From: Candidatus Micrarchaeota archaeon
GTDB taxonomy: Archaea > Micrarchaeota > Micrarchaeia > Norongarragalinales > UBA8480
Length of the DNA stretch: 57,809 nucleotides
Direction: 5' to 3'
Assembly (NCBI GenBank): GCA_043805855.1
Contig: JAZDHP010000029.1
Span: forward strand, 1-57,809
Shown: positions 3,635-25,855 of the stretch, piece by piece
How the letters are laid out: every line of letters starts with the position of its first letter
Numbering within the stretch: position 1 is the stretch's first letter
Translations under genes and position numbers: made by a program
Notes under the pieces: model-generated
Databases searched by the model: none
What the model saw: only the letters and a program-made list of their open reading frames with translations
Told to the model about the DNA's origin: nothing

Positions 3635-3755
3635 GTGATAGCAGCAGCGTCTTTTCCCGTTTTGAAAAACAGTACTTGGGCCGCCGTTAGAGTGCTTGAC
3701 TTCCAGGTTCGAAATGGGACTGGGTATTACCACTCTCCTATGACCGCTATCGCTA
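3635..3755 (-). rRNA. rrf: 5S rRNA (orphan, not in an rRNA operon)
   Basis: The reverse complement contains CCCAGTCCCATTTCGAACCTGGAAGTCAAGC, matching the conserved 5S CCCATCCCGAAC..GGAAGTTAAGC block. The termini pair (GATAGCGG / CTGCTATC). Ends are good to about +/-5 nt. Confidence 0.8.
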
Positions 3756-3806: not shown

Positions 3807-4667
3807 ATGACTAGTTATATGCGCCGTGTAGAACCCGGAAAAAGTGTTATACTTCCAGAAAGTGGACGAGCGTATCGTAAGATTGTCCCGCGTCAAAAAG
3901 GCGCGTTTAACGTTTATACCTTTGCTCCCGGGCTCAGGACAATTATTAGAAGAAGATTTGAAAGACAATTATTTAATGCAGATTGGGAGTTAAAGGAAGA
4001 TTTGTCAACTCGTTCAAGCAGTGCGGGTACTTTCAAGTACACAAACGGTACAAATGAGCTACTTTTGCGGCCGGCGGTTAAACTAGAATTTTTGAAATTA
4101 TACCATCGACTGTACGCCGCTAGGGTGCGTTTTGAAGAACCAGTTGCTTTTTCAATCGCTGGAAATAAAGGCGAGTTAATAACCCGCATAAAAAATCAGA
4201 AAGAAGCAGCAAGTAGCGCACAGTTTAATCAAAATGAAGCGTTCGGAAAACAAACAGCGAGGCGCATTTTTTACGAGCTAGGCAAAATGCACGGCGCCGG
4301 CGTAGCTCACGGCCATCCTCACCTCGCTAATATTTTACTTGACGAAAAAGGCAACGTTACTTTAATTGACCCAAAGTTTCTATGCAATATAAACGCGAAG
4401 AGTTCACCACAATTAAACACCATTTTCCCACGCAGAGCCATACAACTGGCTCAAACAATCAGCGGAAAGGTATCTCTTAACAAAACCCGCGACATTGCGC
4501 GGCTTCTAATGGAGTTAAACGCTGAAGAAACCATGCGAGGCGTGAAGCGCACTTGGGGAATAAAAACAACCGTTGAATTAAAAGAAGCTGCAGCAGCGTA
4601 CAATAAAGGAGTAAAAGAAGGCAAACGCAAAACACGTTGGCTACGCGCAACGGATTGGCTACAGTAG
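3807..4667 (+). CDS. kinase-fold (RIO/Bud32/Kdo-like) protein with an atypical catalytic loop
   Basis: MHGAGVAHGHPHLANILLDEKGNVTLIDPKF matches the HxDxxxxN...ID kinase core, but His replaces the catalytic Asp. Paralogous to 22547..23341. Confidence 0.55.
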   Translation: MTSYMRRVEPGKSVILPESGRAYRKIVPRQKGAFNVYTFAPGLRTIIRRRFERQLFNADWELKEDLSTRSSSAGTFKYTNGTNELLLRPAVKLEFLKLYHRLYAARVRFEEPVAFSIAGNKGELITRIKNQKEAASSAQFNQNEAFGKQTARRIFYELGKMHGAGVAHGHPHLANILLDEKGNVTLIDPKFLCNINAKSSPQLNTIFPRRAIQLAQTISGKVSLNKTRDIARLLMELNAEETMRGVKRTWGIKTTVELKEAAAAYNKGVKEGKRKTRWLRATDWLQ

Positions 4668-19008: not shown

Positions 19009-19857
19009 ATGATAAAAGCGACAAAAACAATACAGGCGCATAACAAAGTACATGGCGCGTATCTATTGCGTGAAGCATATCGGCATTTAGAACCCGGCGC
19101 TAGGGAAAAAATATGCATTGCTCCTTTCAAATACGTTGCTCCAGTTCATTCTTTTGAAGAAATCAAAGCCAAAGTAATTAGACTTGCAAAAGGTAACCCT
19201 GCAGCTGAAAGAATACTTATTCGAGGCAATCCAACGGAAAACATATTAACTGGGGGCACTCGCCACGAGCGATATGCTATTGCCCCGCGTGGCCACTTCC
19301 ACACCAAACCCGGCCAATTCACTTGGGATAATACAATTGAAGATCAAGTTTTAATGCATTATGATCCACACACTAGATTGGTTAAACGCAAAGAAATAAC
19401 GCCCGGAAGCCATGAAGAAAAGCAATTAGTTTATCATTATCGCACAACAAACTGGCTGTTGTATCCAACTAAAGCACAAGAACAAATTGCTTTTGGTGGG
19501 TCTTTCCTTGTCAAAACATTTGCAAGGCGTGGCTACGCTGAAATAACTTGGTACACTGGCGATTTTCGCAATCCAAGCACAAAGCAAGAACACATTGCAC
19601 TTCGACTAAACAAGTCAACCGGCAAAATCACAATTCCACCAGAACACCAAGGCAAACTAGAACTAGTTGAACAGCATAGCCAAGCTCTAGGTAGATTTTT
19701 GAAAGCGCTTGCCAATGCACCAGGTGTGCGCGGAACAAACAGCCGATTTAGATTAAGATTTACCGTGTGGAAAGACGAACCAAACAAACTAGAGTTCTAT
19801 GACTGCATTAAAAGTGGATACATAAAATTCGTTGCTGGAAAAAGAATGCTTGTTTAA
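19009..19857 (+). CDS. hypothetical protein (possible distant member of the kinase-fold paralog family)
   Basis: Clean ATG ORF. GHFHTKPGQF...MHYDPHT weakly echoes [11 protein letters not shown]...LIDPT of 22547..23341. Confidence 0.45.
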   Translation: MIKATKTIQAHNKVHGAYLLREAYRHLEPGAREKICIAPFKYVAPVHSFEEIKAKVIRLAKGNPAAERILIRGNPTENILTGGTRHERYAIAPRGHFHTKPGQFTWDNTIEDQVLMHYDPHTRLVKRKEITPGSHEEKQLVYHYRTTNWLLYPTKAQEQIAFGGSFLVKTFARRGYAEITWYTGDFRNPSTKQEHIALRLNKSTGKITIPPEHQGKLELVEQHSQALGRFLKALANAPGVRGTNSRFRLRFTVWKDEPNKLEFYDCIKSGYIKFVAGKRMLV

Positions 19858-19903: not shown

Positions 19904-20668
19904 ATGCACATTGACGAAGATGTCCACGATCGCCAAAAGAGAGTTAGCGGCTGGAGTCAGGAGAAAATTGCTACTTCTAATGTTGCGGTTGTCGGCGCTG
20001 GTGCTTTGGGCAACGAAGTTGTCAAGAATCTATTACAACTAGGCGTTTCCAGCATCTCGATTATTGATTATGATGTTATTGTAAAGGCTAATTTGAACCG
20101 CTGCGTGTTGTTTACAGAAGAAGACGCGGAAAACAAAGCGTTGAAAGCCGAGGTGCTTAGCCAAAGAGGTAAAAAACTCAACCTCCTTGCGAAAATAACT
20201 CCAGTTTTGAAAAACGTCGAGGAGCTGGACGATAAATTCTTCTCTCAATTCGGCTCAGTGTTCGGCTGCCTTGACAATTTAGGCGCGAGGGTACATGTAA
20301 ACGCAAATTGCTACGATTGCGTTCCGTTTATCGATGGCGGAACAAGTGGGTTCATGGGCAAAGTACAAGTCGTTGCAAAGCCGTCAGCGTGTGTTGAATG
20401 CGCGCTCTCAAAGCAAGATTATGGTTTACTGTGGAAAAAGTACTCGTGCACCGGCGATTTGCTTGATGTGATGGACCCAAAGATGCCCGCGCTGCCCACA
20501 ACGACGAGCGTAATCGCAGGAATCCAAGTAAACGAATTTCTTAAACTCCTAAACCCGCAGTTGAAAGGCAAACCTCTCGCGGGGAAATACCTTTTCTATA
20601 ATGGTTTAACCAGCGAAACGAAAATGTTCACCGCTGAAAAGAGAAAGGGCTGTCCAGCGCACGAATAG
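19904..20668 (+). CDS. E1-like ubiquitin-activating enzyme (ThiF/MoeB/UBA adenylation domain)
   Basis: VAVVGAGALGNEV (GxGxxG), ANLNRCVLF (E1 NLNRQFLF motif), CLDNLGARVHVN, two CxxC pairs (CYDC, CVEC) and a candidate catalytic Cys in KYSCTGD. Confidence 0.8.
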   Translation: MHIDEDVHDRQKRVSGWSQEKIATSNVAVVGAGALGNEVVKNLLQLGVSSISIIDYDVIVKANLNRCVLFTEEDAENKALKAEVLSQRGKKLNLLAKITPVLKNVEELDDKFFSQFGSVFGCLDNLGARVHVNANCYDCVPFIDGGTSGFMGKVQVVAKPSACVECALSKQDYGLLWKKYSCTGDLLDVMDPKMPALPTTTSVIAGIQVNEFLKLLNPQLKGKPLAGKYLFYNGLTSETKMFTAEKRKGCPAHE

Positions 20669-20727
20669 GAGAATAAGCAAATGTTAAAAACATCAAAGTT
20701 GTAATTAATAAAAGAGGTAATAATTCA

Positions 20728-21114
20728 ATGGAAAACTTGTTAAAAACTACGTTGCGTGGTGGAAAGAACCTTGGTATTGCAATTGTAGCCGGCTCTGCAA
20801 TTAGACGGCTAGTGCAAACCAAACAAGGCGAAGCAGCAGCCAAGGCACTAAAACAACACTTGCGTCCCGGGCTATACTCACTTAAAGTGAATGAAGGCGC
20901 AACGCACGCGGTTTTCACAACGGAAACCACAATAATAAAACCTTTCCCAGGTGCAAGAGAAAGGCCTGGAACAATTGTACGCATTCAACTAGTTGCGCTC
21001 CCTAAACACGAAGGTAAAGTTGTGAAATTACCATTCGGAGGAGTGCGCTATCCAATAACAGAAAAACGCATAGAAAGGCCAAAAGGCAAAGTAACAGAAA
21101 GGCCGCGCAGGTAA
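20728..21114 (+). CDS. hypothetical protein in the ubiquitin-like cluster
   Basis: 128-aa ORF directly after the E1-like gene, basic C-terminus. No motif recognised. Confidence 0.45.
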   Translation: MENLLKTTLRGGKNLGIAIVAGSAIRRLVQTKQGEAAAKALKQHLRPGLYSLKVNEGATHAVFTTETTIIKPFPGARERPGTIVRIQLVALPKHEGKVVKLPFGGVRYPITEKRIERPKGKVTERPRR

Positions 21115-21115
21115 G

Positions 21116-22093
21116 CTATTCAAACGCGTCTTTTATTTCGTTTATCACGTCACGGCTACGTTTGTCAATGATTAGCAATAGTTTTTTACCGCAGCGTATG
21201 CACTGTGCATTGCCGTCTAGTAGAGAATCGTAGCATTCTTTATGGTAAGCTGCGCCGCAAAAACAGTGGCCGTACTTTGACAATGCTGAATCAGAAACTG
21301 CGAGTTTAAACTGAGATTTGCACAAGTCACACGCTTCCCCGTTACCGTTGCTTCCATTACTTTCATTTTGGTGTAAAGGTTGAGGTGGAACTGATTGTGA
21401 AGAAGCGACCCTTGTTTTAACAGGCTCTTGAATTATAGTGTGCGGCATTCTCACTTGTACTCGCAGTGGCTCTCCAGTTGCTTTATGTTGTAAGAAGCGT
21501 TGCCGCTGTTCTGGCGACGGACCGTAGCGTTTCATTATCTCTTCCAAATCCATTTTTCCAAGTTTACCGCCAAGGTCAACAACTTCTGTAGTTGAAAGAA
21601 AGTCTTTAACGTGTTTTTGCCCCTCACTTTCAACAACAGTTGGTTTCCTTGCAACAAACGGATGTTTTTGCAGCTTAACTTCGCCAGTAAAAGTTTTCTT
21701 TAAGCTAACTTTTTTCGCACCTTTTCCAGCGTAAAAATTATAACCTTTTATTGTTAAACCAAAAACTCCACTATCTTCTGCAACGAGTTGTTCGGTTTTC
21801 AAAACGTTTAGTTGAGTCATTAACTCGCTACGCGCGACGCCGAGTTGTAAAAGTAAATCATCTGGATTTCCAGTACCTTCGCGAATTAAGTGCAATAAAT
21901 CTCTGTCAAACTGCGTTTGTTTAAACGCCAGTTTGCGTGGTTGGCGCTTTTTCTTCTCTTCTTTTTGCTCTTTCTTTTCTTCTTTTCTATCTTCCTTTTT
22001 GTCTTCTCTTTTAGCTTCCTTGGCTTCTTTTTGAACCGACGTAGCTGCCGCTGGCTTTTCTTCTCTCGCCATTATTGGTTTTTCAGCGTTCAC
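21116..22093 (-). CDS. Lys/Glu-rich + winged-helix + C-terminal C4HC3 (RING-variant/PHD-like) zinc-finger protein, candidate E3
   Basis: The C-terminus CDLC-x16-CFC-x4-H-x2-C-x10-C-x2-C fits a cross-brace C4HC3 finger. The start overlaps the JAMM gene stop by 4 nt. Confidence 0.6.
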
Positions 22094-22539
22094 TTTATCA
22101 CCGCAAATGAAACTTCTCCGTATGAATTACCAGCCAAGCGATAAAAACGCTTTGCCATTACTTTACCCGCGCCAAAATCATCAGAAGCTAGCGGATCAAA
22201 TACTGCGGCAACGTGGAATTGCTCGTTGAAAAAACGACGTTGGGTAGAAACATCAGTTGTTGAAAGAAAACACCCGTAGCCAGGGTGCGAGTGGCACCAG
22301 CCGACAACTATTTCGCCACTTTTTTGCAACTCTTCGGCAATTTTTTCAAACGCGTTTGGAGAAAAGCGAACCGAAACAGCTGAAGAATCAGTTTCGCTTG
22401 TAATAAATTCATTCACAACAACGAAATTCTTCCCTTTGTGCTCGCAAACTTCTCCCATGAGAAGGCCCATTCCTTCCAAGTGAAGCGACGCCAATTGCGA
22501 AAAGTACTCCTCTGCTTTTTGCACTGCGGTTTGCTTCAT
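22090..22539 (-). CDS. JAB1/MPN/JAMM metalloprotease (Rpn11-like deubiquitinase candidate)
   Basis: [17 protein letters not shown] is an exact HxHx7Sx2D JAMM motif, with an upstream Glu in LLMGEV. ATG at 22539; an alternative GTG at 22566 is possible. Confidence 0.85.
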
Positions 22540-22546
22540 GTACACT

Positions 22547-23341
22547 TCAAGCGCCACACTTAGCACCTTTTAGTTTTCTTGCTAAACGTTTAACTCGTTG
22601 CCACTTGGTTAGCTTTGGAACATGCCGAACAATAGTATCAGGATGCACAAGAGTGTGTTTGTAAACCTCGCGGAGAGCTTTTTCAAAATTTCTCACCTCT
22701 CGCTGTGGAAATTCATCAACGCGAAGTAGTGAGTTAATTGCTTCTATTGCAATTCGCAAATCTCTTTCAGGTGTAACCATATGGTGTGTTTCTCGTAGTA
22801 ACGTCGGGTCAATCAACTGCACTGAACCATTAACATTTCTAACTGCATTTCTAGTACCTGGATGCGTGTGCACGAAACCAAGAGCGTGTAACTTAGCAAG
22901 TTGGCGAACAAACTCAAAACTAGCTCTAATCCTATCTCTCCTCGGGATTGTTGAATCGGAAAGGTAGCTATTAAGCGGGCGAGAGTCTTTCTTCCATAAG
23001 GTAACTAAAAGGCGGCGGCCGTCGGGCTGTTCAATAAACGCAACTGGCATTTCAACCAACGCGCGCTGAGAAGCAGCTAATGTCTGTAAACGATTAAATA
23101 TATTAGTTGGCGGAAAATAGGCGTTAACGTCTGACGAAACCCCGCCAACTGCGCAGTTTCTAACGGCAAGTTGATGCCTGCCAAATTGGTGAATGGTTAA
23201 AGCCGGAACTGTTCCAAAAATAACCCACTCAGGGGTTTTCAGCGCGGCTAGTAACTCGCGTGGGTTGTGCTTCTTCCAGTGCGTGACCCCAACTTCTCCT
23301 TCAGGGGTTTGAATTTTGTGCGTTTCCCATTCAAGCGGCAA
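22547..23341 (-). CDS. kinase-fold protein, atypical catalytic loop (paralog B)
   Basis: [30 protein letters not shown] parallels 3807..4667. Apparent TTG start one nt after the upstream stop. Confidence 0.55.
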
Positions 23342-23342
23342 A

Positions 23343-23633
23343 TTATTTCAACCCCAGCGCGTCTTTAAAGTCTCCAGTTAACCCTCGGCGCTTTCGCCTG
23401 TCTCGTTTAATCTTTTCCATTACATCTGGATCAACATTTAACGGAGAAAATGGAGGTTGGGAAGGAATAGCATCGCGCAGCTGCTGTTTACGCAGTTCAG
23501 CAACAACATCAACTGGAACAATCTGGGAAAATGCTTCAGCTTGCTCATCGATATTCTCAACTGGCTCAATTTGTTTAATTATCTTCGGCTTCGCTGGCGG
23601 CTTTTTAACTTCAACAACGCGGGGTTTTGACAT
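23343..23633 (-). CDS. small basic hypothetical protein
   Basis: 96 aa, Lys/Pro-rich N-terminus and RKRR near the C-terminus. Sits between the two kinase-fold genes in the same operon. Confidence 0.45.
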   Translation of the reverse strand: MSKPRVVEVKKPPAKPKIIKQIEPVENIDEQAEAFSQIVPVDVVAELRKQQLRDAIPSQPPFSPLNVDPDVMEKIKRDRRKRRGLTGDFKDALGLK

Positions 23634-23684
23634 AAAGAAAAAAGGAAGGCTAAGTTAAAAAAAGCATAAGTGCATTCAACGAAA

Positions 23685-24425
23685 TTAAACTATTCCTTCC
23701 CGCGCTATTCTTTGGTTTTCCGCTTCGATTCTTATCGCCTTTACCATTTTCTTAAAGTACTTTTTAACAGCAGGATGTTCCCAACGATTAACGTCGATAA
23801 CATTAGCGCCTCGTCGGTTGCCAATTAGATTTCTTACATTTGTATCGCTAGTTGTAAACCCAGCATTGCGAGCACGTTGAAGCAAACCTACGCTTAAGTC
23901 AACAATCTCTCCCTTGCATTTCTCTCTTACTACTCTTTTAGTCACAACCGCCCGACGGCCATCTTGATAGTAAATAATCGCTTGAGGAACCTCAGCGTTT
24001 ACTTTGACGCTCTTCAAACCAAGCAACAAACGCGCTTCTTTAGTTGCTTGCGCTTCAATCGTCTTTACTTTACCTGGAGAAAAAACAACCTCGCGGCTAG
24101 AAGCATAATCCCGCCACCAAGGTTGACCCAAAACAAACGACCGCTCTGGCTCTTTTACAAACAAAGACGTCGGCTTAAGATTAGACAACGTTTGAACGTG
24201 TACAACTGAACGCATGTTTCCTCGTCGAGTATATCCGCGCCAATTTTCAGGCATTAAATGCTCGTGAGGAACACTACAAGTTGGCAAAATAACAACGCGA
24301 TGCCCCGCAGGAGTGTGCAAAACCTCTAGTCTTGAAAGTCTTCGCACTTTTGTAGGTTCTTGAAGTTCAGTCATTGCAAGAATAATTCGCGTGGCAAGGC
24401 ATAATAAATTTCCGGCTGTAACCAT
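23685..24425 (-). CDS. kinase-fold protein (paralog C, retains Asp in the catalytic loop)
   Basis: PQAIIYYQDGRRAVVTK and ARNAGFTTSDTNVRNLIGNRRGANVIDVN parallel [17 protein letters not shown] and the [10 protein letters not shown]...LIDP of paralog B. The real start may be the Met at 24374, leaving room for a divergent promoter. Confidence 0.5.
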   Translation of the reverse strand: MVTAGNLLCLATRIILAMTELQEPTKVRRLSRLEVLHTPAGHRVVILPTCSVPHEHLMPENWRGYTRRGNMRSVVHVQTLSNLKPTSLFVKEPERSFVLGQPWWRDYASSREVVFSPGKVKTIEAQATKEARLLLGLKSVKVNAEVPQAIIYYQDGRRAVVTKRVVREKCKGEIVDLSVGLLQRARNAGFTTSDTNVRNLIGNRRGANVIDVNRWEHPAVKKYFKKMVKAIRIEAENQRIAREGIV

Positions 24426-24443
24426 TAGCGAGGCGAATAGAAC

Positions 24444-24689
24444 ATGGCAGAGTTTAACATTAAAGTTTCACACACGACAAGCGGAAAAGAAATAACCCTA
24501 GCAGTTGAACCAGAATTCACCGTACAATCAGTTTTGGATGTGCTAGTTGACTCCCTACAACTAAAAGACCGCTTCGTGTTGGCAAAAGCTTCTGACAACA
24601 AAATCCTAACGCCAGAAATCACAATGAACGACGCAGGCGTAAAAGAAGGCGAAACGCTACTACTGATGCCTGATCCTACTGGCGGCTAA
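24444..24689 (+). CDS. ubiquitin-like beta-grasp modifier ending in Gly-Gly-stop
   Basis: 81 aa with alternating beta-grasp-like hydrophobic pattern. The C-terminus ...LLLMPDPTGG is followed directly by TAA, so no processing is needed. Immediately upstream of the E2. Confidence 0.75.
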   Translation: MAEFNIKVSHTTSGKEITLAVEPEFTVQSVLDVLVDSLQLKDRFVLAKASDNKILTPEITMNDAGVKEGETLLLMPDPTGG

Positions 24690-24728
24690 AAAAATAGAAA
24701 TATAAAACAGAAAAGGCGAAAAACAACA

Positions 24729-25196
24729 ATGCCAAAATTACCTGAGTCAATTTGGCGTCGTAGAATAGACAATGAATATGCAGAACTTAGCCGCAATTTA
24801 AAAATTGCAAACCTAGAGGCAAACAGCGACAAAACAGAATATCACTTTACCTTAAACGCTACCGCGTACAAGAAAAACGGAACTGCAATTGTTCCAGTTA
24901 GCATGCACAACGTTTCAATTTACTTAACGCGGGAATACCCGTACGCTGGCGGGATTGAAGTCATATGGGATAGTGATATTTTTCATCCTAACATCCGCGC
25001 TAAAGACGGCGCAGTTTGCATTCAAGTGTTAAACCACTGGAGTGAATCGCAAACACTGTCAAGTGTCGTTGACGCGCTTGTACAAATGTTGGAAAATCCA
25101 AACCCCTACTCGCCGTTGAACAGTGAAGCCGCGAAATACTTCGCTAATTACATCCCGCAGAAAACTGAACCTGGAAAACCGAGAGTGGTTGTTTGA
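24729..25196 (+). CDS. E2 ubiquitin-conjugating enzyme (UBC fold)
   Basis: YPYAGGIEVIWDSDIFHPNIRAKDGAVCIQVLNHWSESQTL contains the HPN motif, the catalytic Cys and the conserved Trp. NPNPYSPLNSEAAKYF follows. Confidence 0.85.
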   Translation: MPKLPESIWRRRIDNEYAELSRNLKIANLEANSDKTEYHFTLNATAYKKNGTAIVPVSMHNVSIYLTREYPYAGGIEVIWDSDIFHPNIRAKDGAVCIQVLNHWSESQTLSSVVDALVQMLENPNPYSPLNSEAAKYFANYIPQKTEPGKPRVVV

Positions 25197-25855
25197 ACGA
25201 AACCACTGAACAAAAACCTGAAAAATTCCAATTAGCAAAATTTGCATCGCGAGCTGAACAAAGAAAATCTTTGAGAAAAGGAAAACTAGCTTTTAAAATA
25301 AACGGAAAAGTTGTTGCAATTGGTTTAACAAACGGACCAACCCCAATTGACCATCGTTCGCTTGTAGCAGTTTTGCACGATAGCGCGGGAAATTACCTTA
25401 TACTTCGCCGAGATCAATATGACACCCTTACAGTTCATTTACCGATGCAAAAAAAAGGAGACCGCGAGAAACAAATTGGAACCTTTAACCTACGCTTCAT
25501 TGACCGCTGGCTTGATCCGGAATTTAGAAGAAGAGGAATCGCGACACACGCTTTGAAATGTATAGAAAAATTACATGCCGCATACTATGGCGGCGGGCCT
25601 AACGTATTTGGAACTGTAAAACGCAGCACGGCGCTATTCTTAGCTAAGCGCGCACATTATGTAGAAGAGGAAAGCGGGCTAACCTTAGCGCAAATTAGAC
25701 GAAGTGGAGAGGAGCTACCGCGGATGGTTTACTTTAAGCCAAAACCAACTAAGCCAGCGTTTACAAAACAAGATCTTGAACAAAACCATGTACTAGTAGT
25801 AGCTGGCCATAGCGGCAAGCGAGAATGGTATGTATTGCCAAGGCGAGAGAAATGA
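25193..25855 (+). CDS. hypothetical protein, possible GNAT-fold acetyltransferase
   Basis: WLDPEFRRRGIATHALKCIEK resembles GNAT motif A (Q/R-x-x-G-x-G/A). TTG start overlaps the E2 stop by 4 nt. Confidence 0.4.
   Translation: MNETTEQKPEKFQLAKFASRAEQRKSLRKGKLAFKINGKVVAIGLTNGPTPIDHRSLVAVLHDSAGNYLILRRDQYDTLTVHLPMQKKGDREKQIGTFNLRFIDRWLDPEFRRRGIATHALKCIEKLHAAYYGGGPNVFGTVKRSTALFLAKRAHYVEEESGLTLAQIRRSGEELPRMVYFKPKPTKPAFTKQDLEQNHVLVVAGHSGKREWYVLPRREK

Follow-up and report, generated by a model that had tools for sequence, protein, structure and literature searches.

A kinase-fold protein family with histidine at the catalytic aspartate position, and its probable pseudokinase member in an archaeal ubiquitin-like gene cluster

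The stretch of DNA analysed here (the window; 57,809 nucleotides of contig JAZDHP010000029.1, assembly GCA_043805855.1) stems from a DPANN archaeon of Candidatus Micrarchaeota with a genome of 1.03 Mb (G000; other G-numbers denote related genomes) and carries a cluster of genes for a ubiquitin-like (Ubl) protein conjugation system. Three of its genes, which an earlier reading of the bare sequence (the original prediction) had described as clear paralogs with a kinase-like core, are the subject of this study. K2 (22547..23341, minus strand) encodes a protein of 264 amino acids (aa) with the motif HTHPGTRN...LIDP and belongs to a kinase-fold family that is called the HxH or K2 family in the following. 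Its start codon is TTG, which yields the N-terminus MPLEW that is conserved across this family. K1 (3807..4667, plus strand; 286 aa) is a divergent member of the same family and reads HGHPHLANIL...LIDP. K3 (minus strand; 229 aa, SDTNVRNLI...VIDV) is assigned to a second small kinase-like family; its open frame reaches position 24425, and the likely gene spans 23685..24374 (P0009). All open reading frames and quoted motifs were found where the original prediction had put them. K2 and K3 indeed lie within the Ubl cluster. K1 is located outside it, 18 kb away, and adjoins a 5S rRNA gene (3636-3751, minus strand; Rfam 76.8 bits) immediately upstream.

The central part of the cluster is a run of minus-strand genes arranged head to tail, starting with K3, which is followed by basic96 (23343..23633), the gene of a conserved basic protein of 96 aa with no assigned function, and by K2. 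Downstream of K2 lie the genes of a JAMM/MPN metalloprotease (22090..22566; Pfam JAB, E 2e-12) and of a RING-like protein (21116..22093; 325 aa), which has a Lys/Glu-rich N-terminus, a Cys-rich C-terminal end and a weak match to Pfam zf-RING_2 (E 0.13). K3 and K2 consequently flank the 96-aa basic protein directly upstream of the JAMM and RING-like genes, just as had been proposed. The genes for Ubl (24444..24689, plus strand; 81 aa, GG at the end, weak UBL-type Pfam matches) and for an E2-like ubiquitin-conjugating enzyme (24729..25196, plus strand; Pfam UQ_con, E 1.6e-19) are divergent from K3, and that of an E1-like enzyme of the ThiF family (19904..20668, plus strand; Pfam ThiF, E 9.8e-46) is found on the opposite side of the run. 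The genes are tightly packed, as the stop of basic96 lies 1 nt before the K2 start, the K2 stop is overlapped by 20 nt by the longest JAMM frame and the JAMM and RING-like genes overlap by 4 nt. The gap between K3 and basic96 measures 51 nt and holds a TATA-like T-rich element, which suggests that these two genes are transcribed separately.

The kinase-like fold that had been proposed for these proteins could be confirmed for K2 by structure modelling. The AlphaFold2 (AF2) model computed from the family alignment reached a predicted local distance difference test score (pLDDT) of 86.5 and a predicted template modelling score (pTM) of 0.81. With this model, Foldseek gave 500 or more PDB matches (E<=0.001), and those among the matches listed were kinase-fold proteins with a probability of 1.0, ROP5C (4lv8) included. 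In an exhaustive structural search with VIA-align all top matches were kinases (Z 13.8-14.5 with 182-213 aligned residues): Csk (14.5), Rio2 (14.2), WaaP (6DFL; 14.1), Rio1 (14.0) and Bud32 (4ww5; 13.8), with Pim1 also being present among these effectively tied scores. An independent model of K2 from the Atlas matches Kdo/WaaP clusters with a template modelling (TM) score of 0.72. As judged from these models, K2 belongs to the protein-kinase-like (PKL) superfamily.

The profile of the K2 family also matched the human kinases MELK and PAK4 in the PDB (E 1.7e-6 or weaker). In the profile alignment, GyaHgHpklrN..LiDp of the family falls on GYAHRDLKPEN..LIDFG of MELK, with H160 of K2 on the Asp of the HRD motif, N165 on the Asn and D178 on the Asp of the DFG motif. 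It follows from this alignment that the second His sits exactly on the position of the catalytic Asp, and the equivalent His of K1 aligns to the HRD Asp as well. The replacement of the catalytic Asp by His, which had been noticed in two copies, is thus present in both of them. It is, however, not peculiar to these two but extends across the family.

This became apparent from a profile search of 1.84 billion representative sequences (clusters at 50% identity), which yielded 1980 matches at E<=0.001, 127 at E<=1e-10 and 61 at E<=1e-30. From the 150 matches listed, together with the first seven homologs, 99 family representatives were drawn that matched at least 150 profile positions and were shorter than 400 aa; rows that were longer or more partial were left out, and the set includes a few shorter fragments. 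The family comprises about 100 clusters at 50% identity, with proteins of about 230-290 aa. In the column of the catalytic base (H160) 90 of the 99 representatives have His, four have Asp and five other residues. The two residues of the metal-binding site, Asn and the downstream Asp, had been said to be kept in the His-bearing copies, and both N165 and D178 are found in 95/99. In the putative beta3 column (R61) Arg is present in 88 and Lys in five sequences, and the full R-H-N-D set occurs in 79/99. Further conserved columns are E97 (96), P99 (97), A101 (97), T114 (88), K117 (84), G155 (96) and H158 (94). Altogether, nine columns reach a conservation of 90% or more across the 99 clusters. A conserved alphaC Glu was not found, as no acidic column is conserved in the helix 78-90 of the 99 representatives. 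The signature of the family can be summarised as a beta3 Arg, ExPxA at beta4, TxxK at the hinge, HxHxxxxN and D, preceded by a family-specific N-terminal hairpin (MPLEWKTT..VTHWKKHxP). By their residues (His for the HRD Asp, Arg for the beta3 Lys, with the DFG Asp kept) K2 and K1 fit the operational class of pseudokinases.

Some longer relatives of about 500 aa (P0089, P0104, P0124) have a hydrophobic N-terminal half, which is probably membrane-embedded. They share the motifs PWKTT..VTH, the Arg, ExPxA and SLWK with the family and retain an HGD loop. As relatives with the family motifs have kept HGD, the His form is derived.

K1 and K2 are clearly related to each other. A BLASTP comparison aligned them across 103 residues with an E-value of 2e-7, and a hidden Markov model (HMM) built from K2 and seven database homologs recognised K1 with E 3.4e-8, which improved to 2e-60 once the model was iterated. 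The same HMM revealed five further copies in the 1.03-Mb genome, two on C17, one each on C40 and C10 (the latter cut by the contig end) and K1 itself. Iteration added a degenerate copy on C35 (31106-31774), which reads HGN for HxH and LTNP for (I/V)DP and adjoins a Cdc6/Orc1-like gene, as well as the true Bud32 on C45. The copy number of the HxH family in this genome is therefore at least seven, with six clear copies and one degenerate HGN copy.

The position of K3 is a different one. A close paralogy of K3 to K1 and K2 was rejected, as the K2-family HMM never found K3 in the genome, iteration included, and a forced alignment scored only 1.9 bits. BLASTP gave no significant match between K3 and K1 and aligned K3 to K2 over 18 residues only (E 0.006). 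When profiles were compared, the probability of a relationship was 65.9% with 13 sequences in the K2 family and rose to 94.8% (hhalign; E 4.8e-8, 86 columns) with 99 sequences. This alignment begins where helix C ends, extends to the Asp of the metal site and places D177 of K3 on H160 of K2. The AF2 model of K3 is poor (pLDDT 59.5), a wide VIA-align search with it returned kinases scattered among noise at Z <=5, and a profile search of the PDB with K3 gave nothing significant. Its Atlas model matches Kdo clusters with TM 0.59 over 168 residues, so that a PKL fold of K3 is indicated by this model and the hhalign match only. The K3 family consists of P0009 and P0010-P0012 (31-51% identity), in which K74 (the beta3 Lys), E107, E113, D177, N182 and D194 are invariant. 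K3 is hence a distant cousin from a second, much smaller and rarer kinase-like family, and with its Asp retained (D177 in SDTNVRNLI), as had been noted before, and the full K/E/D/N/D set kept, it is probably an active kinase.

The three genes which had been taken for clear paralogs therefore comprise two members of one family, K1 and K2, whereas K3 belongs to a separate small family. The block PxAFI..DGRR..VT, which had been ascribed to all three, is complete only in K2 and K3; K1 reads PVAFSIAGNKGELITR. As DGRR is conserved in neither family, this part of the likeness between K2 and K3 is a coincidence. The open frame at 19009..19857 (plus strand; 282 aa, between Nre and E1) had been suggested as a possible fourth copy. 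This was rejected, as BLASTP was non-significant and the HMMs of both families missed it even with filters off. It has no Pfam or NCBIfam match and no homolog between Nre and E1 in G002. Another orphan gene, at 20728-21114 (128 aa), likewise sits inside the Ubl cluster; for both genes, no family match and no paralog within the genome was found.

The relation of the HxH family to known kinase families was examined through matches to curated models. At E<=1, Pfam returned no match for K2 and K3, and K1 scores 16.3 bits with Kdo (PF06293), below the gathering cut-off of 21.3. Pfam matches at E<=0.01 among the 99 representatives were to Kdo (27 members; best E 2.2e-7), Pkinase (15), PK_Tyr_Ser-Thr (10), Kinase-like (7), APH (4) and RIO1 (2). 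The best NCBIfam match of both K2 (26.8 bits, E 3.2e-6) and K1 (22.3 bits) is arch_bud32 (TIGR03724), which has a cut-off of 125. The true Bud32 and the true RIO kinase of the genome, which score 171.7 and 188.6 bits, respectively, are separate genes. Weak matches to six HxH paralogs were obtained with the Bud32 model, and the RIO1 model (PF01163), searched against the whole genome at E<=0.01, found only the true RIO and Bud32 and no HxH paralog. Judged from these matches, the family is a new branch near Bud32 and Kdo that belongs to neither. Membership in a defence system was also considered and rejected, as PADLOC returned nothing for K2 and K3, and K1 matched MkoA only marginally (E 0.0063).

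Strong full-length matches to the HxH family were found in nine of 41 related genomes (G000, G002, G003, G007, G024, G025, G028, G034, G038), several of which are multi-copy; weaker matches elsewhere look like cross-hits to Bud32. Within a sample of 401 genomes evenly drawn from the phylum, nine contained the family at E<=1e-15, eight of them from the same order. Among the genomes sampled, the family is thus nearly confined to one Micrarchaeota order, with a patchy occurrence. The K3 family has strong matches in only three of the 41 related genomes (G000, G001, G026) and two marginal ones (E 1e-4 to 5e-4).

Outside the Ubl cluster, the paralogs occur in various housekeeping gene clusters that are unrelated to it. 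One of them is situated between the genes for FtsY and prefoldin, both in G000 and in the metagenome contig L075 (8001-8744 in the latter, where this position recurs). The two C17 paralogs (L067 2027-2791 and 6488-7186) are inserted in a conserved cluster of genes for Rpr2, S19e, L31e, eIF6, prefoldin and FtsY. Other neighbours of paralogs are Rpr2/S19e, SepF, thermosome, L10e, NMD3, Cdc6 and ThuA-like genes, and genes related to lipids, namely geranylgeranyl reductase (twice), CDP-alcohol phosphatidyltransferase (twice) and cis-prenyltransferase (once). No common neighbour for the whole family emerged from roughly 20 contexts examined, in which the lipid genes are a minority. On L078 (5599-7861) a family member is split in two, with an rve-type integrase and a DDE transposase between its pieces, and this copy looks disrupted by a mobile element.

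A eukaryote-like cluster of Ubl, E1, E2, JAMM and RING-like genes (19904-25196 in the window; also L049, L051, L052 and the metagenome contig L071) is near-universal in this Micrarchaeota order. An E2 is present in 39 of the 41 related genomes, with or without the HxH family, and for this reason co-occurrence on the level of genomes is uninformative. The expected co-occurrence with Ubl genes was therefore evaluated by gene order. It holds for one clade of the family (copies in G000, G002, G003 and L071), but the rest of the family resides elsewhere. G000 and G002 share the order basic96, K2-type gene, JAMM and RING, and the cluster of G002 comprises, in this order, E2, Ubl, basic96, K2-type gene, JAMM, RING, E1 and Nre, without K3 and without any gene between Nre and E1. 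A short contig of G003 carries a K2 fragment, basic96, Ubl and E2, and L071 has the gene order of G000 and G002 with two tandem K2-type genes.

The basic96 orthologs adjoin K2-type genes in G002, G003 and L071, and within the cluster this gene is constantly located beside JAMM or K2. The protein is marked by an invariant KPR close to the N-terminus and a DRKKRRGL-like block close to the C-terminus, gave no family match and has only seven database homologs. The RING-like gene is kept beside JAMM in G002, G024, G038 and L071, and Ubl is 90-92% identical in G002, G003 and L071. The last part of the E2 gene is overlapped by 25193-25855, which encodes a 220-aa protein with a marginal GNAT match (E 0.02), and a protein with 38.6% identity to it also adjoins E2 in L071.

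All copies that reside in the cluster group into a single clade (support 96/91) of a maximum-likelihood tree with 28 rows. Many branches of this tree are long and ten of its forks are unresolved; no clade but this one was used. It splits into a group 'a' (K2, L071a, P0002) and a group 'b' (L071b and the copies of G002 and G003), which fits an ancestral tandem pair in the cluster followed by differential loss. Compared with L071, the identity of K2 is 47.8% (to L071a), followed by RING (59.6%), basic96 (61.7%), JAMM (66.2%), E1 (68.5%), E2 (76.1%), Nre (77.1%) and Ubl (90.1%). The predicted complex of K2 and basic96 scored 0.00, which speaks neither for nor against an interaction.

Taking all this together, we regard it as somewhat more probable than not that K1 and K2 represent an undescribed small PKL family nearest to Bud32 and Kdo/WaaP, with K2 acting as a pseudokinase or switch in the Ubl cluster. 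K2 itself would most likely be a nucleotide-binding pseudokinase or switch. According to this interpretation, K1 and K2 would still bind nucleotide and metal but would lack canonical phosphotransfer, and they might serve as ATP-binding pseudokinases or as slow ATPase switches of the Bud32/RIO type that regulate partner proteins. The Ubl-cluster clade, including K2, is a stable resident of the cluster and would most likely be an accessory regulatory subunit or adaptor of the Ubl machinery, with K2 possibly modulating the part of the system formed by JAMM, RING and basic96. A functional link between K2 and ubiquitylation appears plausible. An insertion of K3 beside the Ubl gene was seen in this genome only.

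Several observations weigh against this interpretation. Nucleotide binding, inactivity and the partners of K2 are all inferred, and the assignments of the N-terminal lobe (R61 as beta3, alphaC lacking the Glu) are indirect, as they derive from the secondary structure of the model and the order of motifs. The beta3 Arg is no evidence of inactivity, because the relatives that keep HGD carry it too. The link to Ubl is narrow, with one clade in the cluster and most paralogs elsewhere, and K2 is the fastest-evolving gene of its cluster. G024 has a cluster with a weaker basic96 relative beside JAMM and without a K2-type gene inside, and the cluster of G038 lacks both basic96 and a K2-type gene, with a family member 2.2 kb from E1. 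As the genome of 1 Mb is dense, adjacency alone is weak evidence. For K3 the support is limited, given its poor model, the null profile search and a family alignment of four sequences. Finally, the strictness of the His could mean a new catalytic role instead of a loss.

This last point leads to a tentative alternative, namely that the HxH proteins are active enzymes with a non-canonical chemistry, in which the His would serve an ATPase or phosphotransferase cycle, either as general base or by accepting a phosphate transiently. If the site were decaying, one would expect it to drift, yet the His is among the nine most conserved columns, along with the nearly invariant Asn and Asp. Bud32 and RIO act as ATPases in vivo, and Bud32 and Kdo are the nearest relatives by sequence. 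However, the alphaC Glu is not conserved, the beta3 Lys is replaced by Arg and K2 evolves faster than its neighbours. In addition, those families of the kinase fold for which a basic residue has been described at this position count as pseudokinases according to excerpts of PMC3682881. In a more specific form, the near-invariant His, the Mg ligands and the beta3 Arg would together stand for new chemistry in a Bud32-derived fold, and the cluster clade would be an ATP-driven regulator or adaptor of RING and JAMM. This is conceivable but rather unlikely. Such chemistry might consist of an ATPase cycle via phospho-histidine or of a transferase reaction that is not a phosphorylation. If true, it would provide a prokaryotic counterpart of pseudokinase-E3 pairs, of which Tribbles-COP1 is an example.

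We consider it improbable that the family consists of small-molecule kinases or binders (with sugar, lipid or polyprenol-linked substrates) similar to Kdo/WaaP and that the Ubl position of K2 is incidental. Kdo/WaaP is the best Pfam family and among the best structural neighbours, several paralogs lie beside lipid genes and some longer relatives have the hydrophobic N-terminal half. Nevertheless, lipid genes are a minority of the contexts, the Asp that Kdo/WaaP-type kinases require is missing, and the Ubl-cluster clade has held its place through tandem duplication and differential loss.

Even less can be said for a direct coupling of phosphorylation to Ubl conjugation, the stronger version of the original prediction, in which K3 as active kinase would work with K2 as pseudokinase partner, with a phosphodegron-type mark or with Ubl or E2 as target. 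Active kinases are known to pair with pseudokinases, no catalytic residue is missing from K3, and K3 and K2 flank basic96 in the same direction upstream of JAMM and RING. However, K3 is absent from the Ubl cluster in G002, G003 and L071, its family is strongly represented in only 3/41 related genomes and was never seen beside Ubl genes outside this genome, and the TATA-like element separates it from basic96. That the HxH genes are functionless relics of Bud32-like duplicates is very improbable, as the intact frames, the nine conserved columns across 99 clusters and the conserved syntenic places of several paralogs outweigh the patchy distribution, the rapid divergence and the stops or neighbouring transposases that some copies show.

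The HxH family is not represented by any model of Pfam, NCBIfam or PADLOC, and its close homologs are unnamed in the source databases. A search of the open-access literature revealed no description of the family and none of the Ubl cluster in Micrarchaeota. Kinase-fold families that have fixed an unusual catalytic residue have repeatedly proved to be allosteric regulators or enzymes with unexpected chemistry. As the family is compact, with nine conserved positions and natural relatives that contain the Asp, the role of the His is directly testable. The Ubl-cluster clade would be a first candidate for a nucleotide-dependent regulation of archaeal ubiquitylation. Should the proteins be plain pseudokinases, about a hundred unnamed clusters would nevertheless gain a useful annotation.

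Among known systems, Bud32/PRPK is the closest canonical paralog of the HxH family within the genome. Both have a small bilobal kinase fold with a truncated C-terminal lobe and no activation segment. However, the family scores 16-27 bits, far below the Bud32 cut-off, the genome keeps its own true Bud32, and the HxH genes have no Kae1 partner nearby. Moreover, Bud32 has HGD, a beta3 Lys and DFG, whereas the HxH family has HxH, a beta3 Arg, (I/V)D(P/Y) and the extra N-terminal hairpin. Kdo/WaaP is the commonest Pfam match of the family and a structural neighbour by both TM and Z. The loop of Kdo kinases is HGDLHxxN, which the HGHPHxxN loop of the HxH family resembles, but the catalytic Asp is a His here and the host, being an archaeon, lacks lipopolysaccharide.

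The exchange at the catalytic loop has a parallel in eukaryotes. As excerpts of PMC3682881 report, the coccidian pseudokinases ROP5, ROP22 and ROP36 carry HG[R/K/H], HTH and HGH, respectively, so that in these proteins, too, the HRD Asp is changed to His or another basic residue in a well-aligned loop (PMC3682881). Like the HxH proteins, the ROP pseudokinases form a lineage-specific expanded family. They are, however, secreted eukaryotic protein kinases with full C-terminal lobes and an unrelated origin, and the likeness is a convergence at one position and not a membership. The beta3 Arg also occurs in another group, as the bacterial ActPs2 pseudokinases combine it with an Asn in the HRD motif, according to the part of PMC12599244 available.

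The cluster as a whole resembles the operon of Caldiarchaeum subterraneum, in which genes for Ubl, E1-like, E2-like, RING-like and JAMM/Rpn11 proteins are grouped together (accessible text of PMC5654768). In the text of that source that is accessible the terms 'kinase', 'DPANN' and 'Micrarchae' do not occur. The present cluster differs from this operon by the additional genes basic96, K2 and K3, and by a Ubl that already ends in GG.

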